DNA of 64,000 bases from an uncultured delta proteobacterium. Lineage in GTDB: Bacteria; Desulfobacterota; Binatia; Binatales; Binataceae. The position numbers were made by a program, and so were the translations under genes. The stretch covers positions 269,743-333,742 of the forward strand of contig CAVZFW010000001.1 in the NCBI GenBank assembly GCA_963774705.1, written 5' to 3'. A model generated the notes under the pieces. It did not search any database and was not told the DNA's origin. It worked only from the letters and a program-made list of their open reading frames with translations. Position 1 is the stretch's first letter; each line of letters begins with the position of its first letter. This document shows positions 2,163 through 40,263 of the stretch, in pieces.

Positions 2163-3072
2163 TTGGCCGCGCCCGCTACTACCGTGGCAATACTCGGCGC
2201 CGTTCTGGCATTCGCGGCGCTCTGCGCCGATGCCCAGAGCGATCCGCACCGTGCTCCCTCGCGGCGCCCGGCGCATCCGCGCGTTGTGCCTACGCCCGCA
2301 CCCTTGCCACTACCGGGCAATCTCCACATACCCGCTTACACGCCCGGGCCGAGTCCGTTTCGCGATGGTGAGACACTGCTCTATCGGGCCTCGTGGATGG
2401 GAGTGCCGGCGGCCGACGCGCGCGTGATTGATCGCTCGCAGCAAACTGCATCCGGAATGGTGGACGGGAATGATGTTACTCAACACCAGCCCGGTGGTGG
2501 ATATCGTGTACCGGATGCGCGACGTTTTCCGCGAGAATTTCGATTACATTTCTCTGCGCCCAAACGATATCACGATTCTGCAGCATGAAAAGCAACGCCT
2601 CGATCAATGGCAGGTAACTTTCGATCACGCCAATCATCTGGTGACCGCGATCAAGACCAGCCGTCACGGGAAGATCACGACGCGGCGCTTCAGCGGCGGC
2701 GATCCGCTCGGACCGTTCTCGGGCGTGATGATGGCGTTGTCGCAGCCGCTCAAGCCCGGCGATAGTCCCACGTTCGATGTTTTCAGCGGCGGCAATCGTT
2801 ACGTCTTTACCTTCAAGGTGCTTGGCCGCGAGCGGATCACGACCGCCCTCGGCACCTTCGACACGCTTAAAATCGAGCCGTGGGTGCTGTGGCTGAGCGA
2901 GGGCAGTTTCCGCAGCCAGTCGCGCGAGACCCGGTGTGGGTGTACGGACGACGGACGGCATCTGCCGGTCCGCATATCGTCGGAGGTATTTTTCGGCAGC
3001 GTGTACGCCGACCTGATCCAGAAAAGCGGTGGCCGTGCGACACCCGCGGCGCCCACGCACGCTGCTCAATAG
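2163..3072 (+). pseudogene. DUF3108 domain protein; a single +1/-1 frame change near 2430-2465 splits it between ORF 2040..2588 and ORF 2428..3072
   Basis: N-terminal piece has a signal peptide and the DUF3108-typical GETLLYRASWMGVPAADARV. C-terminal piece has VVDIVYRMRDVF...FDVFSGGNRYVFTFKVLGRERITTALGTFDTLKIEP. The two pieces are in frames 3 and 1 with a 160-nt overlap; TTG/GTG start inferred. Confidence 0.65.
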
Positions 3073-3825: not shown

Positions 3826-4423
3826 GTGATGATGCCCGATCGCGTGCGCGCATTCGTCGCGATCCGAATGGACCCCGCGGTCGAGCAGGCGGTCATCGAC
3901 TTTATCGCGTCGATGCGGACGACCGGGAAATCGAGCTGCGACGGCGTACGTTGGGTCGTCCGCGCCAACCTCCATGTGACTTTGCGTTTTCTCGGCGATC
4001 GCGCCGCAGGGACGACACTCGATCGACTCGACGGCGCGCTCGGCGAAATCGCGACGGCGACAACCTGCTTCGGCATCGACGTTCGTGGTATCGGCGTGTT
4101 CCCCAATCGGAGGCGTCCCCGCGTTATCTGGGTCGGGTTGGAGAGCACGACCCTGCGGACCCTGGCGGCGCAGGTCGAAGGCGCTGCGGTTTTGGCAGGA
4201 TTAGCGCCGGAAGAGCGCACTCTTCACGCCTCACCTGACGATCGGCCGCATCCGCGACTTAACCGATTGGAACGAACTGCGACACCCAATCGAAGCCGCA
4301 CAGAATCGCCAGTTTGGCCTGACCCAGGTGAAATCCTTGATACTCTACCGGAGTATCCTCGGCCGCGATTCTCCCACGTACGAAGAGCTGGGGCATTATC
4401 GCTTCGCCGGCAGTGCTGAATAA
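3826..4423 (+). pseudogene. thpR: RNA 2',3'-cyclic phosphodiesterase ThpR (LigT, 2H family) with a 1-nt frame change near 4215-4223
   Basis: First HxT/S motif region VRWVVRANLHVTLRFLGD is in frame 1. The second motif FTPHLTIGRIRDL, continuing to a stop at 4421-4423, is only readable in frame 2. Direct translation of 4223 onward confirmed. Confidence 0.75.
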
Positions 4424-4465: not shown

Positions 4466-6751
4466 TCACGGCGCGGCCTTCGCGGCGGCGCGGGCGAGTC
4501 CGTCGCGGTCGAAGGCGATCACGAGTTGGCGCATGAAGGTCTCGCCGTGTGGCGGGTCGGTAAATTGACGCGGATAGGGAAAATAGATTCGGGCCGCGTC
4601 GCCGCGGTACTTCGCGATTAACGGACGCAGCGCATCGATTGAGCCGACCACACCGACGCCAATGAGACCACCATCGAGCGCCCCGAGAAAAAGCCCATTG
4701 CTGGTGCGGACCGCCGCCTCGTTGGTCGAATGCGGTGGCAAAAGATCGAGTGATTCCGCACTACGCGGACTCAGTCGCTCGAGATTGCCGCCGCCGGTGA
4801 GATACTTCCGCGCGGCGACCAGCAGCTCATCGAAGCGTGCGGCGTCGCATCGGCGTTCCATTTCGAGCGCGGACACCTGACGCCAGGGCGCGAGATCGGC
4901 TGGAGCGAAGTGATAGAGCGCGACGCCTCCCGTCTCGATTGGCGACAGATGCAACGGCGCCAGCACCGGTTCCCATAACGGACGCTCGCGATCCGCTATG
5001 ATAATCGTGGACACATCGTGATGTGCGAGGAACGCCATCAGTTGGTCGGTGAAGCCGGGAATATAGCTACGGTACAAGAGCGCTTTGACGATCGGCCAAC
5101 TCTGGAACTCGCGCGGCATGATGCTGGTCCATCCACCGGCCATGCGAAAGTACATCGCGGACTCGGCTTGCCAGAGCATGCTCGGACCACTCGGGCCGTA
5201 TGGAAGGATCGCGACGGTCTCGCCGGGTGCGAGATAGCGACTAATATTGCCATCGGTAAAGAACGTGGGCAGATCGACTGGTGCAACCCAAAAGCGCGCC
5301 GACAAATTGGGAATGAGAAAGATCGCGAGCGCCGCGACGCCAGCGAGTTTCGCGCCACGAGTTACCGCCTCCGAGCCCAGCCACAATGCGGCGACAATCG
5401 CGAGTGCGAGGAAGACGTACATCGGGAAGCGGCCGGGCAATGCGTTGTTGATCAATGGAAGATGCTGGAACAATTTCCACGGCAGTCCGAACAATTCGAT
5501 GCCAGCTATGTGGAGGCGAGGGCCGAGTGACGCGAGCATCGCAATCCCCGTGAACCAACACAGGAGTCGAGTGCGCGTTTCGGCCCAGTTGATGCGGAAG
5601 AAGATTAGCGCGATCGCGAGCAGCGGGAGGCCGAAGCATGCGCCGGTCTCGACCATCGCACCCGCAAAGCGCCGTGAGATCGCAGGGAGCGGGCCGAGCG
5701 TACCGAGCGTGTCGGCTGGCGTCGGAATAACGAAATTCAACAGATCGGCCGAGTAGGCGTTGGGCGAGTTCACCGGCGAGCGCGGAAAGCCCGGTTGGAA
5801 AAAGTAATAGAGATACGGCGAGACGAGGGCGAGGACGATCAGATAGACGAATGCCAATTGCGGCAGCAGCGCGTAGATGCGGCGTCGACTTTCATCGGAA
5901 CTGAGCATGGACGCAAGGGCGAGCGCGAGCGCACCGAAGAGGGTCATCGTCGCGAACATCTCGATCGAGAGTAAAAAAGACGCGGCAAGCAGCAGCGCCA
6001 TCATCGCGACGAAGGTAGTGGCGCGAATTTCAGCTTCGAGTCGGCGCAGAACGAGGATGACCGCGAGTGGGATCGGGAAGATGAGGATGAGGAGTAGATG
6101 CGCTCGAATCTCCGCGAGCATGTAAGCCGAGAAGCCAAAGATGTAGCCGCCCAACAGCGAGGGCCAAAAGCGTGCGGTGATTCGCCGACTGAGCATAAAC
6201 GCGGTCCAGGCGGCGAGCGCCGGAGCGGATAGGCAAAGCAGGTTGTAGGCAACGACCGGGCCGAAGCGCGCTGTGATCGGTGCGGCGATTATACCGGCAA
6301 GTGGGAGACCGGTCGTCCAGGTGAGGTTGAAGCCACCGGGAGCCCAGAGCAAATTGGTCACGAACGGATTAAGGCGGTGCGCAAGCGCATACGGCCACCA
6401 GACGAGGAACCACATATAAACCGAGGGATCGGCAGTGAGGCCGACGAATGAGCCGGTGGGATCGCGTGCGAGACCGCGGCCGAAAAAGAACATAGAGAAT
6501 GTGAGATAAATGGCGAGGGCGCCGAGGCCGAAGCGATCGCGCGGGTTCCGCAAGCTATTTCGCAAAGCTATCCACCGCGGAACTAGTCGCCACCCAAGAG
6601 ATTGCCGGACGACGCCTGCCGACAGATTAAACGGCATCGCGGGTGCGTCCAAGCGCTGGTCACTTGCTTTGCCGGTGCACGTTGGGCAGTTAGTTGTGAC
6701 GGTCGGGCGATATTGCGCTCGCCGCTTCCTCGGATTGTAGATGGAAACCAA
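4466..6751 (-). CDS. Large polytopic membrane protein (about 10+ TM helices plus C-terminal soluble domain), function unknown; possibly a GT-C-fold or YfhO-like protein
   Basis: 761-aa uninterrupted ORF. The first half is strongly hydrophobic and the second half hydrophilic. The true start may be an internal Met (MPFNLS at about 6637). It sits beside the glycosylation locus. Confidence 0.6.
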   Translation of the reverse strand: MVSIYNPRKRRAQYRPTVTTNCPTCTGKASDQRLDAPAMPFNLSAGVVRQSLGWRLVPRWIALRNSLRNPRDRFGLGALAIYLTFSMFFFGRGLARDPTGSFVGLTADPSVYMWFLVWWPYALAHRLNPFVTNLLWAPGGFNLTWTTGLPLAGIIAAPITARFGPVVAYNLLCLSAPALAAWTAFMLSRRITARFWPSLLGGYIFGFSAYMLAEIRAHLLLILIFPIPLAVILVLRRLEAEIRATTFVAMMALLLAASFLLSIEMFATMTLFGALALALASMLSSDESRRRIYALLPQLAFVYLIVLALVSPYLYYFFQPGFPRSPVNSPNAYSADLLNFVIPTPADTLGTLGPLPAISRRFAGAMVETGACFGLPLLAIALIFFRINWAETRTRLLCWFTGIAMLASLGPRLHIAGIELFGLPWKLFQHLPLINNALPGRFPMYVFLALAIVAALWLGSEAVTRGAKLAGVAALAIFLIPNLSARFWVAPVDLPTFFTDGNISRYLAPGETVAILPYGPSGPSMLWQAESAMYFRMAGGWTSIMPREFQSWPIVKALLYRSYIPGFTDQLMAFLAHHDVSTIIIADRERPLWEPVLAPLHLSPIETGGVALYHFAPADLAPWRQVSALEMERRCDAARFDELLVAARKYLTGGGNLERLSPRSAESLDLLPPHSTNEAAVRTSNGLFLGALDGGLIGVGVVGSIDALRPLIAKYRGDAARIYFPYPRQFTDPPHGETFMRQLVIAFDRDGLARAAAKAAP

Positions 6752-7500
6752 ATCGGAACTGCTGCCACTGCTCGATACGCTCTACGAATCGAGCAACCCG
6801 ACGCGCAAGTGGCTCCATTGCTCGCGGCGCGATTGGATCATCGGAAAGATTCGCGAGGCCGCGCATGAGCGCCCGGGACGTGCGCTCGAGGTCGGCTTCG
6901 GCGCTGGGCATTTATCTGCCGGCACTGGCCGAGGCCTTTAACGAGGTGGTCGCCGACCGACCTCGACCAGGCCCATCTCGATCATGCGCGCGGCATCGCA
7001 GCGAAGTATCCGAACCTGCGCCTGACTCCGTGACGACGTGATCGATTCGAAGCTGCCGGAGCACAGTTTCAGCCTGGTGCTGTGCAGCGAAGTGATCGAG
7101 CATATTCCGAACTCGGAGAGCGTGTTAGCGGCGATGCATCGGTTGCTCGAACCCGGCGGCATTCTGGTGCTCTCGACGCCGCAACGATGGAGCCTGATGG
7201 AGATTGCGGCAAAGGTCGCGTTCCTGCCAGGCGTGGTGAATCGTGGTGCGGCGGATTTACGGCGAGGCGGTGTTCGACATGGAGCATATAAATTCGATGA
7301 CGGCGCGCGAAGTCGAACGACAATTGAATCGTGCGGGGTTTCGGATTCGCGAACGTTACAAATCCGGAATGTATGTTCCCCTGGTGGCGGAATTCGCGGG
7401 CGAGCGCGGCCGTAGATTCGAGGAATGGTTCGAGCGTCGGATCCGCAGCAATCCGTTGAACTGGATGTTGTGGACGCAATACTACGTCGCCCAGGCGTGA
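6741..7500 (+). pseudogene. Class I SAM-dependent methyltransferase, disrupted by at least 4 frame changes
   Basis: Methyltransferase motifs are scattered over three frames: LEVGFGAGH (motif I), then VVATDLDQAHLDHARGIAAKYPNLRL readable only after shifting, then FSLVLCSEVIEHIPNSESVLAAMHRLLEPGGILVLSTPQ, then a C-terminal piece (ORF 7243..7500) in another frame. Confidence 0.7.
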
Positions 7501-7538
7501 GAGCATGCGCACCCGGCGAACGATCATTTGAGTCTGGG

Positions 7539-9367
7539 CTATCGATGGTGTGGGGTGCGCTCGAATAACACGCGCGGGCCGTGGCCGTCGACCGAAGGGG
7601 ATTCGAGAATCGGCTTGAAGCACTCGCGATTGGCCAACGGCGATGCGTCGAAATCGATCTTGCGCGCAACGACATAATTGAACATGCCGGCACCTTCGTC
7701 GCAGCGCAGATGATAGATCGGCGTCAGCGGCTGCGGCGAGTAGAAATTGAGATCGCAATCGCTCAGCCCAAGGTGTGCGACCGGGGCGCCCGCCGAAACT
7801 GTGCGAACGACTTCACGAGCGAAATCGCGCAAGGTCTCACGCTCTTCGAGCGCCGGATTCATCACCGCGAACCAAAACAACGAGCCGGCCGCGGCGACTA
7901 TGAGTACGCCGCTCGCCTGAAGGTCTGCGTTGCGCTGCCGCAATCCGACAATCGCTGTGACGCCCGCGGTAACGCACGCCGCGATCAGCGCGAGCATCCC
8001 TGAAGCCCTGCGCACTGCAAGCGACGAGAAGATCTCGAGGAATCGGCGGTCGGTAGGATGGAGCCGTAGCGACCAGCCCGAGGGCACACCGTGAATGACC
8101 GCGGCAACTGCGGCAAGCGCCATTACGAGCGAGGCCGCGGCGACGACGCCGGTCGCAATCGCGAATACCGTCGTAAAAGCGCGATCCAGTACCTTGCCTG
8201 ATGGTGGTTCTTCGTTGCTCGATTCCGAATCCTTCATTGCGATTTCGTGCGGCTCAGGCATCGCTGCGGTGTCAATCGCGACGCCAGTCAGAATCGCCAG
8301 CGGAGGAAACGCAGGCAAAATGTACACCAGGCATTTGCCGTGTGAGGTTGAGAAAAAGAAAAAAATCGCAGCGAACCAGCAAAGCGTAAGATACGGTTGA
8401 ATCCGGCAGTTGGCGGCCTCGTCGGGGCCATGCATAGATCGCGACGGCCGGGAGATAAGAGCTCCAGGGGATGAAGCCGGTAGTCGTTTGCGGCGTGAAA
8501 TACCAGAACGGATGCACGCAGTAGCCGGCGCCGCCGGCTTCCGCCGGGATGAACCGGCTCCACAGATTCATCGCGAGCTGCCATTGCAGAAACTTCTCGT
8601 CCGCCGACTTGGTAAGCCGCAAAATACCAGGAAAGACCAATCACCAGCGCCGACAACGAAGGTAAGGATCAGATCGAGGCGAAACAGGTCGCGCAATCGC
8701 CGGCGGACGACGAGATAGAGGCCGACGACTAGACCCGGCAGCAGAATCCCCAGAATTCCCTTTGTCAGAATCCCGGCGCCAATCATGATCGCGGCGAGTG
8801 TCAGAGCGCTCCGTCGCCGAGTGCGGATCGATTGTGGTATCACGGCTGGCGGCATGGCGCGCGGCATTCGGCACCGAAAGGTCGTCGTCCGACAAGCGCA
8901 GCGCGCGTTCGAACGCGATAGCGGCGGCTGTAACGAAAAGCGCGAGCATCGAGTCCATGCGCGGCTGACGGGCGGCGTCGAGAAAGAAATGGCAGAAGAG
9001 GAGTGAAGCCGCAGCCCAGAAGGCGACACGGCGATTGAGCGCGATCGGCGGCCCACAGAAAGACGATCGCGCAGGTCAACGCCGCCGCGAGTATCGAGGG
9101 CATCCGTAACGCGACCTCGCTCCATCCGAAGGCATAGACTCCGAGCGCGGCTGTCCACCAGTAGAGCGGCGGCACGTGAACCATCGGACCGGGCATGAAT
9201 CGCGGCAGAATTATGTTGCCCGCGAGAACGTCGCGCACTGCGCCCGATTCGCAAACGCCGAGTTCGCGCGCGAATGGCGCGGAGGGCGCGAGCATCAAGA
9301 GAAAGGCGAAGGCCGCCGCGAATATCGCGACGGACTCCGCGATAATCCGTCGGCGACTAACTGGCAC
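7539..9367 (-). pseudogene. ArnT/PMT-like GT-C glycosyltransferase (GT83/GT39 family), fragmented into at least 5 frame pieces
   Basis: N-terminal piece 8840..9367 (ESGAVRDVLAGNIILPRF...PPLYWWTAALGVYAFGWSEVALRMPSIL). Pieces 8568..9254 and 8641..8958. Piece 8272..8640 carries the ArnT-conserved HPFWYFTPQTTTGFIPWSSYLP. C-terminal piece 7539..8435 is TM-rich. Confidence 0.7.
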
Positions 9368-10148
9368 TGACGGATGGGATCGGAACTGCGACCGAATCGG
9401 CTTCGACAGGTGAGCGGGCGACCGCGATCAGCGACACGCCCAAAGGAACTCGCGCGCGGCCGATGAGGTGACGCTCGCTCGAGAAAATCCGCTGCAGGAT
9501 GACGTTGATCGATCGCGATGGCATCGCGAGATCGTGACGGCCGTCGGCTTCGATGCGATTGCGCAGCTGCAAACGTTGCAAGATTCGAGCGCCGGCAATC
9601 ATCGGAAACAGCATGAAGTTGTAATAACTCAGGTAGGTAACGTCCAGGCCGGCACCACGGAGGAGAGTGCGCAATTCCTTCGCGCCGTAGCGCCGACGAT
9701 GATGATGGGTGACGTCGTGATCGCTCCACAACCAGGGCATCGCGGGCACCGTCATCAGGAGCCATCCGCCGGGACACAAGCGCGCACGCAAAGCGCGCAG
9801 AGCGCCAGCTTCGTCATCGAGGTGTTCAAGAACGTCGGTCATGAGAATGAGGTCGAAACGCCGATCGCCAAACGGGATTTGATCTGGCAGCGCGCCTCGT
9901 TCGACCTCAGCCAGGCTGCGGGCCCGCGCAAAACCAACTGCACTCTCGTCAGCATCGAGCGCGAACAAATGGCCGCGACGCGCGAGCATTGCGAAATTGC
10001 CACCCGTGCCGCATCCCGGCTCGAGGATCGCAGCGTCGCTGGGCAGGTTCAATCGATCGATAATGTGATCGACGATGGCGCGGCGCGAGGCGAACCACCA
10101 GTGCGCATCCTCGACCTCTGCCATTCGTGGGTACAGACTCGGATCCAT
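9357..10148 (-). CDS. Class I SAM-dependent methyltransferase (intact)
   Basis: 263 aa with motif I ILEPGCGTGGNFAMLA, an FDLILMTDVLEHLDD motif, and LCPGGWLLMTVP. Confidence 0.8.
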   Translation of the reverse strand: MDPSLYPRMAEVEDAHWWFASRRAIVDHIIDRLNLPSDAAILEPGCGTGGNFAMLARRGHLFALDADESAVGFARARSLAEVERGALPDQIPFGDRRFDLILMTDVLEHLDDEAGALRALRARLCPGGWLLMTVPAMPWLWSDHDVTHHHRRRYGAKELRTLLRGAGLDVTYLSYYNFMLFPMIAGARILQRLQLRNRIEADGRHDLAMPSRSINVILQRIFSSERHLIGRARVPLGVSLIAVARSPVEADSVAVPIPSVSAS

Positions 10149-10152
10149 TGGG

Positions 10153-11160
10153 CTAACGCGACTCTTCCTCGAAGCCCCATCGATCGCGGACGAGATACAA
10201 AGGCCGGCCCTTGACCTCGCTATACATACGCGCGAGGTACTCGCCGATTATGCCGAGCGAGATCAACTGTACGCCGCCGAAGAACAATACCGCGACCATC
10301 AGCGAAGGATACCCGGGCAAATCGACCCCGCGAAAGACCTTCAGGCCGACGAGGAATAGCGCAAATATAAAGGCAAATAGCGAACAGGCAACGCCTATGT
10401 AGCTCCAGATTTTGAGCGGCATCGAACTGAACGACGTGATCGCGTCGAGCGCGAAGTTCCACAACCGCCAGTAGCTCCACTTGGTCTCGCCGGCATGGCG
10501 CGGCTGGCGGTCGAAAGTGATCGAGGCTTGCTTGAAACCGACCCACGCGAAAAGTCCTTTCATGAAGCGCGTGCGCTCGGGCAGGCGCACAAGGACGTCC
10601 ACCACGCGGCGATCGATCAGTCGAAAATCGCCGGTGTCGTGCGGGACCGGGATGTCGGTTATGCGATCGAAGATCTCGTAGAAGTACCGTGCGGTCTTGC
10701 GCTTTAGCCAGCTGTCACCCTCGCGCCGCTTGCGCCTGGCGAAGACGATATCGAAGCCCTCCCGCCACTTGGCGACCATCGGGATAATCAGCTCGGGCGG
10801 ATCCTGAAGGTCGGCGTCGATCGGGATCACGGCTGCGCCGCGAGCGTGGTCCAATCCTGCGCTGAGCGCGACATCCTTACCGAAGTTGCGCGAGAGACTG
10901 ATGACCTTGACGGCCGGCGTTCGACGGTGAAGCTCGATCAGGCGATCGAGGGTAGCATCGGTACTGCCGTCGTTGACGCAGATGACTTCCCAAGTGGTGC
11001 CGATGCGCTCCAGCACGGGAATCAGTTGCGCAAAGAACTCATCGATGCCCGTGATTTCGTTATGCACCGGGACGACGATCGAAATTTCGACGGTCGCGAT
11101 CGCCACATCGGGCGCGCCAATAAAGCGTGTGGCGCAGGGCATGGTTGCTTCAGTTCGCAT
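10153..11160 (-). CDS. GT2 family polyprenyl-phosphate sugar transferase (ArnC/DPM1/GtrB-like)
   Basis: ISIVVPVHNE...ICVNDGSTDAT...IDADLQDPP motifs plus two C-terminal TM helices, typical of ArnC/GtrB-type enzymes. 4 bp from the downstream methyltransferase gene. Confidence 0.85.
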   Translation of the reverse strand: MRTEATMPCATRFIGAPDVAIATVEISIVVPVHNEITGIDEFFAQLIPVLERIGTTWEVICVNDGSTDATLDRLIELHRRTPAVKVISLSRNFGKDVALSAGLDHARGAAVIPIDADLQDPPELIIPMVAKWREGFDIVFARRKRREGDSWLKRKTARYFYEIFDRITDIPVPHDTGDFRLIDRRVVDVLVRLPERTRFMKGLFAWVGFKQASITFDRQPRHAGETKWSYWRLWNFALDAITSFSSMPLKIWSYIGVACSLFAFIFALFLVGLKVFRGVDLPGYPSLMVAVLFFGGVQLISLGIIGEYLARMYSEVKGRPLYLVRDRWGFEEESR

Positions 11161-11193
11161 CGCAGACTTGAGGATCGGAGCATAACGAGCGAA

Positions 11194-12762
11194 TCATTTC
11201 GAGCGCCGGACCTCAAACAGGTCGTAATAGGCCGCTCCATAACGGGGATAGCGCTTCACCAATGAGATGCATCGCGGTGGCGTGGTGATTGCCAGGCGCC
11301 GCTCGTCGTGATTGTCGAGCGCGAGATATCCCGCGCCGCTTTGCGCTTGAAGCCAGATGCAAATATCCCGAATCGAATCGGTGGGCAACAGGATGAACGC
11401 GCACTGCGCGTAGTAAGCGAAGCGCCCATCGCGCGCCACTACCGCAGTGGGTCTTCCGCCGGTGCGCCGCGCGATTTCCTGGCCGGCGTAGCGCACCCCA
11501 CGCATGTCGAACCCGATGGGCCAGAGGGTCTGTGGCAGCAGGACCAGTGCGATCGCAATCGCGAGGGCGTACGGGGGGAGGCGCGAGAATCGCGTGCCCG
11601 CGATGACACGACTCAACCCTTCCGACATCGTCATGAGTCCGATCATTACCCAACCGAAGGAGAATGGAATCAGGTGAAGCATAAAACGCGCACCGGTGTA
11701 CGAGAAAGAGAAGGCGACAATGTAGGACATGGTCAAAAGCGCGAGCAACGCCTCGCCCATATTCGCGGGAATTGCGCGGCGCCGCGGCCAGAGCCCGACG
11801 ATTAGGCAAATGGACAGCACAGTGCCGAGTGCCTTGCTGAAGCCATAGAGCGATGCAAAAAAATCAGCGCCGACCTTTTCCAGATACAACCTCGGGCTTG
11901 CAAACAACGGTGCGAACGGCGACACGCTGTTGGAATAGCCCAGGCGTTGCCAAGCGAGCCGGTCGGGCGCGACGGTGCCCATCCCATACATCATCGCGGC
12001 AGTGAATTCTCGACCGACACTCCAGTGGCCGGTCGTTTCACGGAGATAGATCAAGTACGGCGCGGCGACGACGAGGAACATGGTCGCGAAAATCGTGCTG
12101 GCCGCGATCGTCCAAATAAAACTCCATTGCCGCCACCACAATGCCGCCGTCAGCACGAATCCGATGCCAACTATCAGCAGTCCAAACGCTTCGGTGCGAT
12201 ACAGATAAGCGAGTCCACCGACGAGGCCGGCCGCCGCTACGAGGGCGATTCGCTCTCGCTTGAGCCCGGCGATCAATAGCCATACGGCCGTCGTCAGAAG
12301 GAAAATGAAGCCAGCTTCGGTACGCACCGAAGCGGAATATGCGGCCATTTCGGGATGGATCGCGACGAGGATAGCGGAGCCGAGCGCGAGGTCGCGACGC
12401 TCGAAGACTTCGCGCGTCATCAGGTAAACGCTGACGACCGCAAAGCTGCCGAGAATCGCCGAGACACTGTTCCCCGCCAATTCCCAGTCGGAAATCACCC
12501 GGTGGACGATTGAGATAATCCAAGGGTATAGCGGCGAAAATACCGACGCTAACGCGGCCGCCGTATCGCCGGCGCCGAACTCCCGGGCCATCGCAAGGTA
12601 GGCCACGCCGTCACCCGCGATGCAATAGCTGGTCAGGCAGAGGTACAGTCGAATCCAAAGGGCTAGGGTTACGATCAGCGTGAGCGCCGTCCGTTCAGGA
12701 CAGTCCACCAGCGCAGACGGGAGCCACTCGGGATTCCCAGTACAACTGGAGCGATTTTGCAT
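11194..12762 (-). CDS. GT39/GT83-like GT-C glycosyltransferase (dolichyl/undecaprenyl-phosphate-sugar dependent), intact
   Basis: 522-aa polytopic ORF with the N-terminal topology and periodicity of PMT/ArnT-family proteins. Located immediately upstream of the GT2 gene. Confidence 0.6.
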   Translation of the reverse strand: MQNRSSCTGNPEWLPSALVDCPERTALTLIVTLALWIRLYLCLTSYCIAGDGVAYLAMAREFGAGDTAAALASVFSPLYPWIISIVHRVISDWELAGNSVSAILGSFAVVSVYLMTREVFERRDLALGSAILVAIHPEMAAYSASVRTEAGFIFLLTTAVWLLIAGLKRERIALVAAAGLVGGLAYLYRTEAFGLLIVGIGFVLTAALWWRQWSFIWTIAASTIFATMFLVVAAPYLIYLRETTGHWSVGREFTAAMMYGMGTVAPDRLAWQRLGYSNSVSPFAPLFASPRLYLEKVGADFFASLYGFSKALGTVLSICLIVGLWPRRRAIPANMGEALLALLTMSYIVAFSFSYTGARFMLHLIPFSFGWVMIGLMTMSEGLSRVIAGTRFSRLPPYALAIAIALVLLPQTLWPIGFDMRGVRYAGQEIARRTGGRPTAVVARDGRFAYYAQCAFILLPTDSIRDICIWLQAQSGAGYLALDNHDERRLAITTPPRCISLVKRYPRYGAAYYDLFEVRRSK

Positions 12763-12838
12763 CTCCGGCCTATCCTATTTGACGCGACGCGGCGCTCAAA
12801 CCGCGACAACGCCGGACAGACCGGCACGGATGCGGCAG

Positions 12839-13072
12839 TTACCCGGCTCGCTCGGAGCTTGCGGCCAGAGCGCTATCGCGCATCACCTTGGCCGCCTGCA
12901 ATCCCTTGGGCCCTTGCGCCACGTCGAACCGGACCTGTTCGCCCTGTTCGAGCGACCTGAATCCGTTCCCATCGATGGCGGTGTAATGGACGAAGACCTC
13001 CTGGCCGTCATCCATCGTAAGGAAACCGTAGCCCTTTTTGGGGCTAAACCATTTGACTACGCCGATAGCCAT
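12839..13072 (-). CDS. Cold-shock protein (CspA family) with a short C-terminal tail
   Basis: MAIGVVKWFSPKKGYGFLTMDDGQEVFVHYTAIDGNGFRSLEQGEQVRF matches the RNP1/RNP2 cold-shock domain. The start was trimmed from the longer ORF. Confidence 0.9.
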   Translation of the reverse strand: MAIGVVKWFSPKKGYGFLTMDDGQEVFVHYTAIDGNGFRSLEQGEQVRFDVAQGPKGLQAAKVMRDSALAASSERAG

Positions 13073-13298
13073 TCCCCCGAGAACCTCCATGAGGCGTGCC
13101 TCGATTGTCCCCGCTGCGCGGAAGTGGCCCCCCGGCCCCGTTCGCACGCGGTAAGGGCGCATATAACACACGGGTTGTCAAATACAAAATGGTCGGTTAA
13201 AGCTCGGAAAGAACGCAATTTTGCCTCAGTCGCCATTTGCTCGGCTAATCCCGTATCGCTACCGAGCTAATCCGCAATCGCGGTGCCCGATTGTGCGA
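13073..13298 (-). promoter_or_regulatory. Long 5' leader of the csp gene (about 225 nt); a candidate cold-shock 5'UTR regulatory element
   Basis: Non-coding gap between the csp start and the upstream gene. CspA-family mRNAs characteristically carry long structured leaders. Confidence 0.3.
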
Positions 13299-13589
13299 TC
13301 AGCCGCGCCAACGCTTCGGCCGCGCGTGCATGTGACAATGGTCAGGAATCTGGCGCATCACACCGTCGATGATGAATTCATCGTCGCCGTATTTCGATCG
13401 CGCGACCAGCGATAGCGCCTCAACCATGAACGCACGCTCTTCGACTGTCGGCCCTGCGCGATGCTCGCCCAATACCGCCATCGGAGTATCGCATGAATCG
13501 CAATCCAGAATGGTAAAACGAAACGGCTGGGTGAAACTCGCGTACCAAGGGGTGTATTCTTTCAACTCACACAAATCGCACTTAGACAT
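13299..13589 (-). CDS. Small Cys4 (CxxC...CxxC) zinc-ribbon-like hypothetical protein
   Basis: 96-aa ORF starting MSKCDLCELKEY...ILDCDSCDTP, giving two CxxC pairs. Sits in an otherwise non-coding interval. Confidence 0.45.
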   Translation of the reverse strand: MSKCDLCELKEYTPWYASFTQPFRFTILDCDSCDTPMAVLGEHRAGPTVEERAFMVEALSLVARSKYGDDEFIIDGVMRQIPDHCHMHARPKRWRG

Positions 13590-13704
13590 GATGCATCAGT
13601 GCTTAGCCGTTAGTTCGGCGCGCGACAAGTCTGGGAAGTAACGCTGACTCAGTGCTACAAATGGTCGCGACACGATAGCGAATTGACGTAGTGGAGGATC
13701 CTGG

Positions 13705-14892
13705 ATGGACGCCAAGGCCGCGGCACGGGAAAGATTCGGAGAAGCCGAACAGGAACTAATCGAACTAAGTCATCGGATTCATGCGCATCCGGAACTGGGC
13801 TTCGAGGAGGAACGCGCCGCACAGTGGATGTGCGAGACGATGGCGGACGCGGGCTTCGCGGTTGAGCGCGGCGTGTGCGGGATGCCGACGGCATTCGTCG
13901 CGCGGGCGGGCTCCGGACCACTGCACATCGCGATTTGCGCTGAGTACGATTGCCTGCCCGGCATTGGTCACGCTTGCGGGCACAATATTATCGCTGCGAG
14001 CAGCGCCGGGGCCGCTATCGCCGCGGCCAGGGTCGCGGACGACGCCGGATTGACGATTACGCTGCTTGGCACCCCGGCAGAAGAGATTTGTAACGCTGGC
14101 GGAAAGATCCTGATGCTCGAGCGCGGTGCCTTTGACGGCGTTCACGCGGCAATGATGGTTCATCCGGCGCCGGTCGATATATCCGCCCCGTCAATCATTG
14201 CTGCCGCGATGTTCGACGTACACTACACTGGCAAGGAAGCGCACGCGTCCGCATTTCCCCAACTAGGCATCAACGCCGCCGATGCTCTGACCGTGGCGCA
14301 GACTGCGATCGGTTTATTGCGCCAGCATATCCATGACAGCGATCGCATCCACGGCATTGTCACCAAGGGCGGCGAGGCGCCGAATATCGTTCCCGCGCAC
14401 ACCTCGGCCCGCTATATGGTGCGTGCGCAAACGCTCGGCAAACTCGGATCCTTGATCCCGAAGGTGCATCGATGTTTCGAGGCAGGAGCGATCGCAACCG
14501 GATCCAGCTATCAGATCGCGGGCGGCGATAAACCATATGCCGAGATGCGGCACGATCACGAGCTCGTGTCGCTTTACCGTCGCAATGCGGAGGCGCTCGG
14601 ACGCAGCTTCATCGATCCCGATCCGAAGGCGCGGCAGTCGGGTCATGAGCGCGCGATGGGGGCCGGCTCGACCGACATGGGCAACGTGTCTTTGCGGCTG
14701 CCGGCCATCCATCCGCTTATCGGGATCAATTCGATCCCGGCGGTCAATCATCAACCCGAATTCACCGCCGTTTGCGCCGCGCCAGACGCCGACCGCGCAA
14801 TCGTTGACGGCGCAATTGCGATGGCATGGACGGCGATCGATATCGCCAACGACAAGACTCTGCGCGAACGCCTGATGAAAGCTGGCGACTAG
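13705..14892 (+). CDS. M20 family amidohydrolase (hippurate hydrolase / N-acyl-amino-acid amidohydrolase-like)
   Basis: 395 aa with the HACGHNIIAA metal-binding motif and a TPAEE motif. GGAGGA Shine-Dalgarno 6 nt upstream. Confidence 0.85.
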   Translation: MDAKAAARERFGEAEQELIELSHRIHAHPELGFEEERAAQWMCETMADAGFAVERGVCGMPTAFVARAGSGPLHIAICAEYDCLPGIGHACGHNIIAASSAGAAIAAARVADDAGLTITLLGTPAEEICNAGGKILMLERGAFDGVHAAMMVHPAPVDISAPSIIAAAMFDVHYTGKEAHASAFPQLGINAADALTVAQTAIGLLRQHIHDSDRIHGIVTKGGEAPNIVPAHTSARYMVRAQTLGKLGSLIPKVHRCFEAGAIATGSSYQIAGGDKPYAEMRHDHELVSLYRRNAEALGRSFIDPDPKARQSGHERAMGAGSTDMGNVSLRLPAIHPLIGINSIPAVNHQPEFTAVCAAPDADRAIVDGAIAMAWTAIDIANDKTLRERLMKAGD

Positions 14893-14943
14893 ATGCGGCT
14901 GGCGCTCACGGGCACGCGTCAGCCTCTCCTTATGATGATCACG

Positions 14944-15288
14944 CTATTTGCTGGGTGAGGCCGCAGCAGCCGGAGCCGGCGAACTCGTCCCGGTGGCCGC
15001 ACCCTTCTTTGACGCGCTCGCCGAAGCAGAAGAGGCAGCCTTCTTCTTGCATTTGTAAACGCTCGAGGTCGAGATCTTCAGATCGGTGGCAATGTCCTTA
15101 GTTTTTTTCCCCGCTGCGATTTCGGACATTACTTTGTCGCATTCCACTTTTTTGCCGGCCGTCGCCCAGGCGCTCGTCGGATTGAAGCCCATGCCGACCG
15201 CGCCAACCATAGACAGTGTAGCTATTCCAAATGCAAGTTTCCGAATCACTATTATGCTCCCCGCGGGTAAGAGTCCCTTCCATCGCAT
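14944..15288 (-). CDS. Small secreted/lipoprotein-like hypothetical with a helix-turn-helix-like segment and an Ala/Ser-rich tail
   Basis: MRWKGLLPAGSIIVIRKLAFGIATLSMVGAVGMG (signal/TM), followed by an HTH-like segment IAAGKKTKDIATDLKISTSSVYK, then low-complexity KKAASSASASASKK. Confidence 0.35.
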   Translation of the reverse strand: MRWKGLLPAGSIIVIRKLAFGIATLSMVGAVGMGFNPTSAWATAGKKVECDKVMSEIAAGKKTKDIATDLKISTSSVYKCKKKAASSASASASKKGAATGTSSPAPAAAASPSK

Positions 15289-15345: not shown

Positions 15346-16366
15346 TCACAGCTCAAGCATGACCTTGGTCTGGTTCGATGGCTGTGTGAGAGCCGCAAAC
15401 GCGCGCGGCAGTTCGTCGAGGCCAACCGTGTGAGTAATCATTGGTTCGGTCGAAATGCGGCCCGAAGCGAGCACCGCAATCGCTGTTTCCACTTCGCCGG
15501 GCTCCAGCCCCAGGCTGAAGTTGACGTCGAGTTCCTTGCTCATCGCAAGGCCGGGCGGAAAGCCGTCGTCTTCCATCGAAACGCCCAGGATGGTCACGCG
15601 GCCCGCCGCGCGGCGCATGAGAGATCGCTTGCGCCATAGTTCCCGCTTCGCCGATGCACTCGAAGATGACGTCGGGACCGGCGCCGGTAATCCGGGCCAT
15701 CGCGGCGGCCGGGCTGTGCATCCGCGGGTCAACGGCCGCATCCGCGCCAAGCTTCAGGGCGACCTCGCGCCGATCCAACTGGAGTTCCGAAACCACGATT
15801 GCGCGCGCACCGGAGAATCGCGCCCACAACAGCGTCATCAGGCCGATCGCCTCCGGCTCCCATGATTACGCAGGTCTCGCCGGTCTGAAAGCGCGCACGG
15901 CGCAGTCCATGGAGGCCGACGACGAGCGGCTCGACCGTCGCCGCCGCACGAAAACTCATCGTCTTCGGGATCTTGAAGACACTGCCAGGCCGCGTCTTGA
16001 TCAACTCGGCATAACCGCCCGGAACGTCGCCGAATCCGACCATCCGCATTGCGTCGCACCGCACGCTCGATGCCGGCGCGGCAATTGGCGCATTCGCCGC
16101 ACGACAGATACGACATCACGACCACCGGATCGCCGGGATTCGAAACCGGTCACCCCAGCGCCGACTTTATCGACGACGCCCGCGATTTCGTGGCCCATGA
16201 TGGTGCCCGGCAGGGAGCTTCGCCTTGGCCGAAGTGGCGGCGTGCAGATCCGAACCGCAGATGCCACAAGCCTTGACGCCGGACGAAGTTCTCCGATCTG
16301 CACCGGATCAGGTAGTTCGACGACTTCGAGCGGCGCGCCGATCGCCTTGAATACGCATGCCTTCAT
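15346..16366 (-). pseudogene. Zn-dependent alcohol dehydrogenase (MDR family), at least 4 frame changes
   Basis: MKACVFKAIGAPLEVVELPDP...GHEIAGVVDKVGAGVTGF (16001..16366). SCGECANCRAG (15838..16125). GGYAELI...TCVIMGAGG (15729..16064). Cofactor domain and C-terminus in 15353..15838 and 15346..15750. Confidence 0.75.
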
Positions 16367-16473
16367 AATGGTGTTGCGAGATAGCGAATATCGCCGACGA
16401 AGGCGCTACCGCCGAGGGGCGGGCCTCTGAGATATACACGCCTTCATCGTCCGTGCTGCATCGAGGATACGGG

Positions 16474-17277
16474 CTATTTCTTCAGGTGCGGGAAGACCGG
16501 CGGGCGCTTCTCCTTCACCGCCGCGACACCTTCGTCCACGTCGGCGCTGAAGAAGCCGAGCATCTCGAAGGCGAGCGACGCATCGAAATGCGGACCGAAG
16601 GTCTTGACCCAGTTGTTGAGCGCGCGCTTGGTCAAACGCGCCGCCTGCTGCGGACCGCGAGCGATTTTTCGCGCGACCTCGAAGGCCTTGTCCATCAGCT
16701 TGTCCGCCGGCACGCACAGACTCACCAGTCCGATGCGCTCGGCTTCCTTGCCGTCGATGAAATCCGCCGTGATGAGGTAGTACTTCGCCTTCGCCAGGCC
16801 GCACAGCAACGGCCATAGAATGACCGCGTGATCGCCGGCGGCGACGCCGAGACGCAGATGGCCATCGGTGATGCGCATCGACTTCGGACGCGATCGTGAT
16901 GTCCGCCATGAACGCCACCGCGAGGCCCGCGCCGACCGCGACACCGTTGATCGCCGAGATGATGATCTTCTCGCAATTGACGATGTTGTAAACGATGTCG
17001 CCCGCCTCGCGCATCGCTTGCGAGATGTTGGCGTGATTGCCCTTCATCGTCCTCGATCATGTCGAGGTCGCCGCCCGCCGAAAACGCACGGCCCTTGCCG
17101 GTGATGATGACGACGTTGGTCTTCGGGATCGTCGTCGATGTCCCTCCACACCCGGCTCAGCTCCCAATGCAGGCGCGCATTGGTCGCGTTAAGCACGTCG
17201 GGCCGATTGATCGTGATCAGCAGGATGCCGTCGTCGTGGCGCGTGAATTCCAGAAACTGATATTCGTCGTACCTCAT
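16474..17277 (-). pseudogene. Enoyl-CoA hydratase/isomerase (crotonase) family, at least 2 frame changes
   Basis: N-terminal piece 17044..17277 (MRYDEYQFLEFTRHDDGILLITINRPDVLNA). Middle piece 16406..17047 ([27 protein letters not shown]). C-terminal piece 16474..16944 ([24 protein letters not shown]). Confidence 0.75.
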
Positions 17278-17406
17278 CGGGTGTTCTCCAAAAGTGGCGT
17301 CGCAGTCTTAGTAGCGCATCCGGCACCTCGGTGGAAAACCCGCGATCAATTGAAACGCAATGATGGGGTCTGATGGCGCAGCTTGATTATTCCGCTGCGA
17401 TCATTT

Positions 17407-18335
17407 GACCCGCGATCATCCAGCATAGATGTCCATGATTTTGTTCAGCAACGCGATCGCCTCGGCCTTCGGACGCTGAAATGAGTTGCGGCCGATGATC
17501 GATCCGAATCCGCCGCCTGCCTTGATCGCCTTGACCTCGTCGATCAGCGCCGCGTCGGTATCCTTCGGTCCACCCGAGAAAATGACGAATACGCCGGCCG
17601 TCGAAGCAGCTTTGCACGACGTGGCGCACGCGCTCGGTCAGCGGCTCCAGCGGAATCCGCTGGGCCTCATAGACTTTCTTCGCCTCGGCCAATTCCAAAT
17701 GCGATGAAGGGAGCTTGACCTTCACGATATTGGCGCCAAGCTGCGCCGCTATCTGCGCGGCATATGCAACGACATCCAGCGCGGTCTCGCCCTCCTTGCT
17801 GATGCCGGAGCCGCGCGGATATGACCACACCACCACCGCCAGCCCGCATTGCTTCGCCTCCTCCGCAATCCCCCGCAATTCCTCATACATATCTCGCCGC
17901 TCCGCGGATCCCGGGATAGATCGTGAACCCCACAGCGGAACATCCGAGCCGCAGCGCATCGTTAACGCTGCCGGTCACGGCGGAAATCGGATCGCGCTCG
18001 TCGTATAGCAGGTCGTGATTGTTCAGCTTCAGAATTAGCGGCAGCTCGCCGGCAAATTCGGCCGCGGCTGCTTCGAGGAAACCGAGCGGCGCTGCGTAGC
18101 CGCTGCATCCGGCCTCGAGCGCCAACTGGAAATGATAGTACGGATTGTAACCCGCCGGATTTACCGCGAAGCTGCGCGCCGGTCCGTGCTCGAAGCCCTG
18201 ATCAACCGGCAAAATAACTAGTTTGCCCGTGCCGGCTAGTCGCCCTTGATTAAAAAAGCGGGCGAGGTTAGTACGCACGCCAACGTTTTCGGAATCGTAG
18301 TAAGAAAGAATTTCGCGGACTCGCTTGGTCATCAT
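17407..18335 (-). pseudogene. fbaB: Class I fructose-bisphosphate aldolase (FbaB/DhnA type), at least 2 frame changes
   Basis: N-terminal piece matches E. coli FbaB (NQGRLAGTGKLVILPVDQGFEHGP). Middle piece is in ORF 17387..17959. The C-terminus (VIFSGGPKDTDAALIDEVKAIKAGGGFGSIIGRNSFQRP...IYAG*) was recovered by hand translation of a third frame ending at 17407. Confidence 0.75.
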
Positions 18336-18396
18336 GCGAATAGCCCCTCCTGGAGTAGTTTGGTTTTGGATCACCCTGCCGTGGGAGCGATGCCGC

Positions 18397-19389: not shown

Positions 19390-20515
19390 CGGTCCGCCTC
19401 GTGAAGCCAGATCATCTCTATGGTACCGCGCTAGCGAACCGAGGAAAGAGGCTCGGCGGATGCGCCCCGTTAGTCATTGCACTTGAGCGGCAAGGTCTTC
19501 TGACTACGCTTAATCTTGCGGCGGGCTCGAGCGTCACTTTCTGGTCGCTCTCAACGACAAAACTTTGCACCTGTGAGGGTCGGAATTTGGATGAGTTGCC
19601 AGGCCAGCTACTGCTGGTCGTTAAATTTTTAAAATCGCGACTTCCCAACAACGCAGCCTCTTTAGAGTTTTCGGACAAAACTCAATGCACTCAATGTATC
19701 AAAGCCGAGATTGGTCTCGAAGCTGAGCCTTCGATGACGCACGCCGTCTGGCGGTGGCTCCTTCTCTCCGAGTTTCCGAGGATTCAATCTCGCGTGCCAT
19801 CCGCCATGCTCTTCCAGTAAACCCGCTAGTCATATCCAACCGATCGTGCGGTCGTCTCAAGGCATGAAAGCTGCTTGAACAGGGAGCCATGCACTTGAGC
19901 TCGTTTCGCGACCGTTTTGCGCCAAAAGCACCCGATGCAGGAGGCCCCCACTGCGACGAGTTGCGCGCAATTGATCGCAATGAAAGCTCGAACTCACTGC
20001 GCAATTCTCTGTTGGAAAAGACGATTCAACGCGATTTGACGGGCTTTGTCGGCGTTATATAGTCGCAACTTTTGCCATAGGAATGATTTTAATGGTTTTT
20101 TATTCATTCGCGTACGGGCTCATGTTCCGCTTCAACGCGCTTATCAAACGAGCCGCCGGATGAGCGGGGCATCTGGCCCGAGAATCCAGCTGCGGCCATC
20201 AGGTTCTTCCGCGGAGGAGTCACAAATCGCTCGACGCTTCCTGGTGCGCTTTCCCCAGTACTGGTTTTCCTCAAGGCGTCTTTTTTGAGTGCCAATTTAC
20301 TTGCGCTAAAGAGGGAAGGTTAATTCGCCGCGGTCAACGGCGGGATTTCCCTTTTGAGCCGGATAGGGTTGGCAACCCTGCGCTGCACCGCTCGCAGAGG
20401 CGAGAGAATCGAGGCTCGCCAATCCCGCGTGATTTCTCCCGAGCAGAGCGGCCGAGGTCTCCGCATTGGAAATCGCCGGTGCATCGAACAACGTACGTTA
20501 GCCTCGATCCAGACA

Positions 20516-20926
20516 CTAATCCCCACCAATATGAGTCCCCTTCTCCGCTACCGAGCGACGCATGAGCAGAACGAACGCCACCAACAGAACCCCGACTGCA
20601 GCTGAAAATGTACACACGTCAAAGTAAGCCATTGACGACGCCTGTTGAGCTCGCGATTGGCCGAGGACGCCCAATGCCATCTGATTTGACAATACGGCAT
20701 CGCCGTTGTGCTGCACCTGCGGGAACGCATCCAGAAGCACGGCTTGGATCGAGGGTTGGAGACCACCCCCGGCCACCCCTGAAGCGCTCGAGATGCGATG
20801 ATAAAACCAAGGCTTCCAGCCATTCCGCACAAAGCGGACGCCAACGTAAAGATGGCTATCGAGGGCAGAAAATAGTTTCGCCTGCCGAGCCGCAGCGCAA
20901 GCCACCCGGAGAGATCGCGAGGCCAT
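20516..20926 (-). pseudogene. Remnant of an MFS (DHA-type) transporter gene inside an AT-rich decayed interval
   Basis: GVAGGGLQPSIQAVLLDAFPQVQHNGDAVLSNQMALGVLGQ matches the MFS helix 4-5 signature (GxGGGxLxPxxxAxIxDxFP...G). No full-length ORF is present; surrounding sequence 19400-21000 has visibly lower GC. Confidence 0.4.
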
Positions 20927-21094
20927 CAGCCCAGTCCGGCGAGAACCTGATCGAGTTTTCGTCAGGCATTGGCACGAAACTTCCTCAACAGCTGTGAGAG
21001 CGCCTCGGGGATGTTTTTCTTCCTATACGCGACTGCCGTTGCGCTTGGCACCGGAAGATACCGTCATCGCCAATGGAGCGATCCATGCGCTGTG

Positions 21095-21526
21095 TCACTT
21101 CCCGAGTGGGATCGTCAGCACCTTCTCGCTCGTGTCGACCACGAACACCGCAAGGAGCTTGGCCGGCTCCGTCTCGCTGGCATTGGCGCTGACACCGTGG
21201 CGGTCCCCGGGCAGCTCCGAGAAGCTCTCTCCAGCCTTGTAGATCGTCACCGGTCCGTCGTTGACCTGACTTCGGATTGCCCCCTCAAGCACAGTCGCGT
21301 AGATGAACGCGGATTTGGCATGGGTGTGACCAGGCGAGTAGCCGCCTGGGCTGTATTCCACGAGCACGCCCTTGATGCTCTTGCCGGGAACGTTCGGCAG
21401 CTCGTGCTGGTAGACGAGGGTCACCTTGGCGTTCTCCGACTTAGGCGCATTGGCGAGGACGCTCTCACACAACAGGCTCGCGAAAAGTAGCAGACAGACG
21501 AACAGCGGACTGATGATGCGTTTCAT
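21095..21526 (-). CDS. Cupin-domain protein with signal peptide
   Basis: MKRIISPLFVCLLLFASLLCESVLA signal. GYSPGHTHAKSAFIYATVLEG cupin motif. Confidence 0.7.
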   Translation of the reverse strand: MKRIISPLFVCLLLFASLLCESVLANAPKSENAKVTLVYQHELPNVPGKSIKGVLVEYSPGGYSPGHTHAKSAFIYATVLEGAIRSQVNDGPVTIYKAGESFSELPGDRHGVSANASETEPAKLLAVFVVDTSEKVLTIPLGK

Positions 21527-24199: not shown

Positions 24200-24353
24200 G
24201 CACTCCTCTAATCTGTGAATTTAATCCCTTACGATTCCCGCCAGTTCTGTCGACCAACATCAAGAGAGAAGGAAAAGCTATCACGGTGACACCAATGCCC
24301 CAAAGCGGTGCCGGCTAATCGCCCACACTCCAATCAGGGAGCCATCCGCTGGC

Positions 24354-24752: not shown

Positions 24753-25097
24753 GACCAGGCGGCGACGCCATTTGTTTCGGTATCAGCAACACAACGAAAA
24801 GGCCGGATTTGCTGCTGTGTTCAAGACCGCCAGATACTAGACAATGTCTCGGGCAGCCGAGCGCGATTAGCCGGCCTGCACGATGCAGTTTCGCAACGAT
24901 CGCGCGCTATTTTCCCACACTTAATCCAAAACTCCCGACCGACAGAAACCGCATGATAAGTCCCGCTGGACGAATCGATATCGATCTTTGCTGAGACAGG
25001 AGCAACACAAAGTACGTCCCAGCCAACATTGGCGAAGTTATGAGAAGGTGAGTTCGGATATATTCTTTCGTCGCCACCTTCTACTTGTCCGGTTCGA

Positions 25098-38012: not shown

Positions 38013-38051
38013 GATGCTGTTCATTATTTTATCCTCAGCGCCACGCTACCG

Positions 38052-40214: not shown

Positions 40215-40263
40215 TTTTAGATCCTCCGAAAAGTGCGCTGCGCTAGGACAATGACTCTCGAAA

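Follow-up and report, generated by a model that had tools for sequence, protein, structure and literature searches.

Gene content and order of the glycosylation cluster

The DNA analysed here is a 64,000-nucleotide stretch, referred to as the window, from an uncultured member of the Binataceae (contig CAVZFW010000001.1 of assembly GCA_963774705.1, positions 269,743 to 333,742), and all coordinates are counted from its first nucleotide. Positions 4466 to 12762 hold a conserved six-gene envelope-glycosylation cluster, composed of one lipid-sugar donor synthase, three membrane glycosyltransferases of the glycosyltransferase C (GT-C) type, and two methyltransferases. The layout was established from a listing of open reading frames (ORFs) and three-frame translation of the 64-kb window, and comprises the following features.

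11194-12762, minus strand: GT-C 1, an intact gene for a 522-residue GT-C-fold membrane glycosyltransferase of the Pfam PMT_2/PMT type
10153-11160, minus strand: GT2, the intact gene of a GtrB-type donor synthase (335 residues; Glycos_transf_2, 111 bits)
9357-10148, minus strand: methyltransferase 1, an intact class I S-adenosylmethionine (SAM)-dependent methyltransferase gene (263 residues)
7539-9367, minus strand: GT-C 2, an ArnT-like GT-C gene with its frame broken by five 1-base insertions
6741-7500, plus strand: methyltransferase 2, a class I SAM-dependent methyltransferase gene with its frame broken by four 1-base insertions
6566-6740, no strand: the intergenic region between the divergent methyltransferase 2 and DUF6311-type GT-C genes
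4466-6565, minus strand: GT-C 3, an intact gene for a DUF6311-type polytopic protein with a predicted GT-C fold, 699 residues long as in its orthologues

An earlier prediction, made from the nucleotide sequence of the window (the original prediction), had listed these ORFs, and all of them are present where it placed them; its general reading of the region as a polyprenyl-phosphate-sugar and GT-C glycosylation locus is also supported as a functional class. It described the broken methyltransferase gene as divergently oriented, which holds relative to the large membrane-protein gene, GT-C 3, but not relative to GT-C 2, with which methyltransferase 2 is convergent. Based on the gene coordinates and the conserved divergent arrangement, positions 6566-6740 are predicted to serve as a shared promoter region for methyltransferase 2 and GT-C 3.

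The order GT-C 1, GT2, methyltransferase 1, GT-C 2, methyltransferase 2 (on the opposite strand), and DUF6311 protein is conserved, with CSD and M20 genes flanking the cluster on one side and LigT and DsbA genes on the other. In two related loci, L001 and L002, the gene order is identical and all six genes are intact, and in eight further genome loci (L003-L010) the same order is found with intact genes as far as each contig extends, in a set (L001-L010) that includes both short-read and long-read assemblies. The divergent pair of methyltransferase 2 and the DUF6311 gene is kept throughout L001-L010 and in L013, the last and L009 being more distant. Furthermore, a scan of metagenomes with frame-corrected GT-C 2 found 28 loci, nearly all of which hold a full-length match, the exceptions being those truncated by contig ends. 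Homologues of GT-C 1, GT-C 2 and GT-C 3 come almost exclusively from Candidatus Binataceae metagenome-assembled genomes (MAGs) and soil metagenomes. In uncultured Binataceae, these six genes thus make up a conserved envelope-glycosylation cluster.

Frameshifts in GT-C 2 and methyltransferase 2

One question raised by the window is whether its broken genes are decaying, as the original prediction held in proposing that one of the glycosylation targets is being lost. That prediction counted at least five pieces in the second GT-C gene, correctly, since GT-C 2 reads as six successive frame pieces separated by five frameshifts. Alignment to L001, the closest intact orthologous locus (about 84-90% DNA identity) and the reference for indel calls, places single inserted bases at about 9048, 8818, 8649, 8598 and 8391 in GT-C 2, and at about 6905, 6952, 7028 and 7242 in methyltransferase 2, with no indels in the intact neighbour genes. 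Removal of the five bases restores a GT-C 2 ORF of 599 codons, and removal of the four a methyltransferase 2 ORF of 251 codons, neither containing a stop. The 298-, 85- and 66-residue fragments are called proteins on the deposited NCBI/ENA contig (452,618 bp), and the frameshifts therefore belong to the deposited assembly.

The corrected genes bear no sign of relaxed selection, either as a raised ratio of nonsynonymous to synonymous substitution rates (dN/dS) or as an excess of lineage-specific substitutions. Compared with L001, dN/dS is 0.20 for GT-C 2 and 0.105 for methyltransferase 2, against 0.065-0.19 for the intact neighbours. When amino acid changes were assigned with outgroups to the window or to L001, GT-C 2 gave 29 and 20 (a ratio of 1.45) and methyltransferase 2 gave 6 and 8 (0.75), with neighbours ranging from 0.9 to 2.5.

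Frameshifts across the window

Frame mapping, by a Viterbi assignment of reading frame together with DNA alignment to intact orthologues, located frameshifts in 7 of the approximately 19 genes in the first 19 kb: those for DUF3108, LigT, methyltransferase 2, GT-C 2, a Zn-alcohol dehydrogenase, an enoyl-CoA hydratase, and DeoC. The affected genes beside the cluster, and a third region further into the window, are located as follows.

15349-18338, minus strand: frameshifted alcohol dehydrogenase, enoyl-CoA hydratase and DeoC genes
3826-4420 and 2283-3033, plus strand: frameshifted LigT and DUF3108 genes
37016-42099, minus strand: kdpABC potassium-transport operon, with kdpA, kdpB and kdpC in at least 12 frame pieces

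All 15 events that could be aligned cleanly, in GT-C 2, methyltransferase 2, LigT (1 insertion), enoyl-CoA hydratase (3, with a net return to frame) and DeoC (2), are +1 insertions, and the mixture of deletions, nonsense mutations and repeat slippage expected of a pseudogene was not seen among them. The inserted bases are G (5), T (5), C (3) and A (2), and 5 of the 15 are of homopolymer type, compared to a fraction of 0.45 expected at random, with no slippage signature. The remaining genes are less clear-cut. Alcohol dehydrogenase has at least five further 1-base insertions, along with two 2-bp gaps in a poorly aligned N-terminal part, and the DUF3108 alignment, in which stop codons remain, contains two insertions and one deletion. 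In the kdp operon, all six frame transitions of kdpA are in the direction of a +1 insertion, but three of the six in kdpB and kdpC are in the opposite direction, which could reflect two closely spaced insertions, as in the GT-C 2 control, or a real deletion.

The events fall into blocks, at about 6905-9049, about 15604-17892, and 37016-42099, that cross gene and strand boundaries and leave the coding sequence in between, about 11 kb, free of frameshifts. By our own arithmetic, roughly 21 events spread at a uniform rate over about 18 kb of coding sequence would leave such a clean 11 kb with a chance of about 1e-9. Eight of the 15 inserted bases lie directly before a third codon position, and 9 of the 15 are compatible with a second, synonymous allele placed next to the original base (0.37 expected as a fraction; p=0.057). 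The idea that polymorphic sites were written as both alleles, that is, as merged single-nucleotide polymorphisms, agrees with the surplus of insertions ahead of third codon positions, but was not adopted, the p value being suggestive only.

Elsewhere in the window, two stretches of lower G+C content (0.55-0.59), at 19400-21100 and 24200-26750, have no coherent coding frame, and may be remnants of mobile elements or heavily error-laden sequence. The end of an ORF at 24354-24752 (plus strand) resembles the C-terminus of an IS5-type transposase, and an ORF at 26585-27250 (minus strand) resembles a phosphoesterase or phospholipase C fragment.

Assembly error or gene decay

Independent assemblies bear on the origin of the breaks. 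The only same-population contig found is L014, an independent contig from the Joint Genome Institute (JGI), which matches 4,223 bp of the clean stretch at 99.38% identity with no gaps; it covers window positions 10906-15128 and so lies outside the broken genes. None of the 28 metagenome loci is from the same population, the best being 83% identical. L011, a sister assembly at 90% identity (ENA ERZ25039534 contig_80468), has its own private indels at different positions (14 1-bp insertions and 8 deletions), which break M20, GT-C 1, methyltransferase 1, GT-C 2, methyltransferase 2 and DUF6311; of these, M20, GT-C 1, methyltransferase 1 and DUF6311 are intact in the window. Glucokinase and alcohol dehydrogenase are also among the split genes of L011, and in L013 (ERZ25039537 contig_56931) protein kinase and luciferase-like genes are split. 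Such split genes in two long-read-style assemblies suggest a consensus-error problem at the level of the data set. Related MAGs of the clade belong to a catalogue built from Nanopore data only, using Flye for assembly and one round of Medaka for polishing; its authors inspected it for Nanopore-associated errors (PMC12313526).

The breaks in GT-C 2 and methyltransferase 2 are, in our judgement, most likely consensus errors that arose where a long-read metagenome assembly was locally poor, because the deletions, nonsense mutations, repeat-linked indels and relaxed constraint that long-standing decay would leave are all missing, and because nine recent insertions in two genes, together with dozens alike in unrelated housekeeping genes, make no credible natural history. 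Both genes are probably intact in the organism itself. An alternative is genuine and very recent pseudogenisation, in which GT-C 2 and methyltransferase 2 are disappearing from the lineage together with one glycosylation target, while the donor synthase and the other GT-Cs are retained. Consistent with this, the frameshifts are present in the deposited sequence, they cluster in particular genes and leave 11 kb of neighbouring genes untouched, and a functional link between the two genes, which lie side by side, is conceivable. Against it stand the +1-only spectrum, free of deletions, nonsense mutations or slippage context in the cleanly aligned events; the presence of nine indels with neither excess substitutions nor a relaxed dN/dS; the similar damage to kdpABC, alcohol dehydrogenase, enoyl-CoA hydratase, DeoC, LigT and DUF3108; the blocks that run across gene and strand boundaries; the intact locus in every relative examined; and the different private indels of the sister long-read assembly, L011. 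Pseudogenes of bacteria typically show a deletion-biased and repeat-associated spectrum, the opposite of the insertion-only pattern found here. Recent pseudogenisation is thus improbable, retaining some probability because no reads and no same-population assembly span the broken genes, and the proposed loss of a glycosylation target is not supported. That the insertion-only blocks are real and stem from a biological process is scarcely credible.

Several points nevertheless weigh against attributing the breaks to consensus error. The interval from 6.9 to 9.1 kb is covered by no reads and by no independent assembly of the same population, and the long-read origin of the window contig is itself inferred. 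Nanopore consensus errors are usually homopolymer deletions rather than context-free insertions, leaving the error process unexplained, as are the insertion-only spectrum and the block arrangement, for which merged polymorphisms offer only p=0.057. Strong clustering of events would also be expected from gene-specific relaxed selection. With respect to function, the identity of the sugar, the flippase, the acceptors, and the methyltransferase substrates are inferences as well. Taken overall, the explanation that best fits the locus, and a likely one, is that of a conserved Binataceae glycosylation cluster whose frameshifts are most likely assembly errors.

This distinction is of practical importance, as anyone claiming the loss of a glycosylation arm from the window sequence would be drawing a false biological conclusion. 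When consensus errors in a metagenome assembly are of the insertion type, they can look like multi-hit pseudogenes; they are recognisable by an insertion-only spectrum, the lack of relaxed selection, intact orthologues, and physical blocks that extend past the limits of single genes.

The donor synthase

Over 310 gap-free residues (22-331), GT2 is 59.7% identical to GtrB of Synechocystis, sll0501 (PDB 5EKP; 448 bits), and the similarity is full-length, including the C-terminal transmembrane hairpin. Nine GtrB residues, D94, D96, Q98, D99, R122, R125, K132, D157 and R197, have been named for binding of Mg2+, UDP-glucose and undecaprenyl phosphate (Und-P) and for catalysis, the DxD motif among them (PMC12698845), and all nine are identical in GT2. 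Because of this identity and the retention of every named residue, GT2 is assigned as a GtrB-type polyprenyl-phosphate hexosyltransferase, probably a glucosyltransferase. The original assignment of GT2 as a polyprenyl-phosphate transferase is thereby borne out, and GT2 is not a cellulose- or chitin-synthase-like enzyme.

The same prediction had called this gene ArnC-like. Against ArnC, the alignment scores 172 bits only, compared to 448 bits for GtrB. In NCBIfam, the best match of GT2 is PgfS (280 bits; cut-off 500), and ArnC is the second-best named match (180 bits; cut-off 529), both falling below threshold. Judged from these scores, GT2 is not an ArnC orthologue.

GT-C 2 and the relationship to ArnT

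A family profile of GT-C 2 finds a single match in the PDB, ArnT 5EZM, with an E value of 1.3e-23 (1e-15 for the single sequence), so the description of the broken GT-C as ArnT-like stands. The ArnT-specific block reported in the original prediction is present as well, although its letters are HPFWYFTPQTTTGFIPWS and not GFLPWS; it aligns with SVFYFLPLVIGGFLPWA in Cupriavidus ArnT (PDB 5EZM). Frame-corrected GT-C 2 scores 46.1 bits against PMT_2 and 33.1 bits against PMT, and all four larger fragments of the uncorrected gene match pieces of the PMT_2 and ArnT models. Against the NCBIfam ArnT equivalog, NF009784 (cut-off 567), the corrected protein scores 115.7 bits and P0001, an intact orthologue, 115.4 bits. 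By these profile comparisons GT-C 2 is ArnT-like, yet no ArnT orthologue.

These results bear on the possibility that the locus encodes an Arn-type system, in which GT2 would be an ArnC making Und-P-linked 4-deoxy-4-formamido-L-arabinose (Und-P-L-Ara4FN), and GT-C 2 would move 4-amino-4-deoxy-L-arabinose (L-Ara4N) to lipid A, conferring resistance to cationic peptides. In its favour, ArnT is the closest relative of GT-C 2 among solved structures and NCBIfam models, and ArnC is a named, if second-best, match for GT2. These likenesses are outweighed by the much greater proximity of GT2 to GtrB and by equivalog scores far under both the ArnT and the ArnC cut-offs. Furthermore, neither the locus and its syntenic counterparts nor the rest of the 64-kb window was found to contain an arnA, arnB, arnD or arnE/F gene. 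The lipid A interpretation of the original prediction is thus not supported, and an Arn-type system is very improbable here.

GT-C 1 and the methyltransferases

GT-C 1 matches PMT_2 with 53.8 bits (cut-off 26.1) and PMT with 26.9 bits (cut-off 22.7), models that also cover ArnT-like proteins and cannot separate family GT39 from GT83; profile searches run to assign GT-C 1 to one of these families accordingly did not discriminate between them. A sequence search of the PDB gave no match to any chain. An invariant G50-D51-G52 lies just after the first transmembrane helix (TM1). The AlphaFold2 (AF2) model of the protein has a predicted local distance difference test (pLDDT) score of 89.4, and its best Foldseek matches are STT3/AglB/PglB, ArnT, and ALG12/9. 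Template-modelling (TM) scores are 0.57-0.61 for STT3 and 0.54/0.53 for ArnT, with Pmt1 and Pmt4 lower at 0.35 and 0.26, and GT-C 1 is therefore not placed by Foldseek closer to the PMTs than to other GT-C families. The gene is well preserved, at 84% amino acid identity with no indels relative to its L001 orthologue, and 99.4% DNA identity with no gaps relative to the JGI contig.

Methyltransferase 1 matches Methyltransf_23 (67.6 bits) and related models, and is 85% identical in amino acid sequence to its L001 counterpart, with no indels. Frame-corrected methyltransferase 2 matches the same model with 75.7 bits. For both proteins, PDB and NCBIfam searches returned generic class I matches only, none of them substrate-specific.

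GT-C 3, a DUF6311-type protein

The original prediction reported a 761-residue polytopic protein at one end of the cluster. That ORF exists (4466-6751, with a TTG start), but it is only the maximal ORF; the orthologues, 699 residues in length, align from position 6565, and the public gene call is 723 residues with a start at 6637. GT-C 3 and its L001 orthologue share 85% amino acid identity with no indels. Membership in DUF6311 comes from precomputed PF19830 annotation on orthologues of GT-C 3; a local search of Pfam-A gave no match for the DUF6311-type proteins (that at 4466-6565, P0122 and P0214), though the precomputed annotation lists PF19830.5. A sequence search of the PDB with GT-C 3 was also without a match, and none of the papers in the library searched mentions DUF6311.

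The structural model is more informative. With a pLDDT of 89.9 and a predicted TM score (pTM) of 0.90, the AF2 model of GT-C 3 has a polytopic N-terminal module and an extracytoplasmic domain that can be superimposed on known GT-C enzymes. The 27 best Foldseek matches in the PDB are all GT-C enzymes, with a probability of 1.00 and E values down to 4.7e-6; their TM scores span 0.25-0.48, and those of the 22 best 0.33-0.48. Based on this model, the DUF6311-type protein can be assigned with confidence to the GT-C fold. Because its model matches GT-C enzymes, the locus is predicted to hold three GT-C-fold proteins, and the earlier notion of two GT-C enzymes sharing one donor overlooked the large membrane protein as a third. 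The assignment of a GT-C fold to DUF6311, a family of unknown function, is a modest new point. Residue D46, in the loop after TM1 (helix 13-28), shows at least 90% conservation across 55 homologues and is a candidate counterpart of the catalytic aspartate of other GT-Cs.

Profile-profile comparison among the three GT-C families, with shallow alignments, gave no signal (probability 0.3-2%), and by this measure the three are not recent paralogues of one another. Distant homologues of the DUF6311 protein occur in other settings. In L012 (10001-13419), one adjoins an Acyl_transf_3 O-acyltransferase gene, and in L013 (9105-12118), another adjoins the divergent methyltransferase only. These neighbours hint that the glycans on which DUF6311 proteins act also receive acyl or methyl groups.

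A proposed pathway

[quoted passage not shown] The lipid-linked sugar would then be turned to the periplasmic side by a flippase encoded outside the locus, as no gene for a GtrA, SMR or MATE flippase lies between or beside the six genes, either here or in L001-L010. In the periplasm, up to three mutually unrelated GT-Cs (GT-C 1, GT-C 2, and possibly GT-C 3) would use the lipid-linked sugar and would glycosylate one or more envelope acceptors. The two SAM methyltransferases, presumably cytoplasmic, probably transfer methyl groups to the sugar or to the lipid-linked intermediate.

It is also conceivable that the three GT-Cs do not share the product of GT2, and that the operon of GT-C 1, GT2, methyltransferase 1 and GT-C 2 and the pair formed by methyltransferase 2 and the DUF6311 gene are independent modules that happen to adjoin. 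The divergent methyltransferase-DUF6311 pair is found without the GT2 operon in L013 certainly and in L009 possibly, and the association of the L012 homologue with an acyltransferase gene instead points the same way. However, the adjacency is kept in 9 of the 9 close relatives whose contigs span both modules, and no other donor synthase is nearby. A separation into independent modules is for these reasons unlikely, though not negligibly so. A speculative extension of the shared-donor pathway, held tentatively and given somewhat less than even chances, is that DUF6311 represents an unrecognised GT-C family that forms a module with a dedicated divergent SAM methyltransferase, and that in the Binataceae this module shares GtrB-made polyprenyl-phosphate-glucose with two unrelated GT-Cs in building or decorating a methylated envelope glycan.

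Comparison with known glycosylation systems

One close parallel is found in the three-component periplasmic glycosylation of the Gtr type, which consists of a GtrA flippase, a GtrB Und-P-glucose synthase, and a serotype-specific GT-C, and is responsible for O-antigen glucosylation in Shigella and Salmonella (PMC11127046). As in those systems, a GtrB-type synthase adjoins GT-C-fold transferases at the Binataceae locus. Unlike the Gtr systems, the locus has no linked GtrA, SMR or MATE flippase, encodes three mutually unrelated GT-Cs in place of one, includes two SAM methyltransferases, and is chromosomal and conserved across the family rather than phage-borne.

The ArnC/ArnT system (GT2 plus GT83) is a second point of reference, as GT-C 2 shares with Cupriavidus ArnT a transmembrane core and the block YF..P...GF(L/I)PW. 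The two differ in the sub-cut-off equivalog scores of the Binataceae proteins, in the GtrB-like character of GT2, and in the lack of arnA/B/D/E/F genes nearby.

For the DUF6311 protein, the best structural matches are oligosaccharyltransferases and other GT-C_A enzymes (AglB/STT3/PglB, DPY19, and AftA/AftD), at TM scores of 0.37-0.48; sequence identity to them is 9-15%, with no Pfam or PDB sequence match.

The sharing of one donor among several transferases also has a precedent. In the Pgf protein-glycosylation cluster of Streptococcus mutans, the GT2 enzyme PgfS is accompanied by PgfM1 and PgfM2, both of them GT-C-like membrane proteins. The Binataceae GT2 has its best NCBIfam match in PgfS, and in both clusters one donor synthase would serve more than one GT-C. 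The Binataceae enzyme differs in scoring under the PgfS cut-off of 500, and its locus differs in lacking an epimerase and in belonging to a Gram-negative-type organism. Set beside these systems, the locus is unexceptional: it is conserved and belongs to a known kind of glycosylation system.

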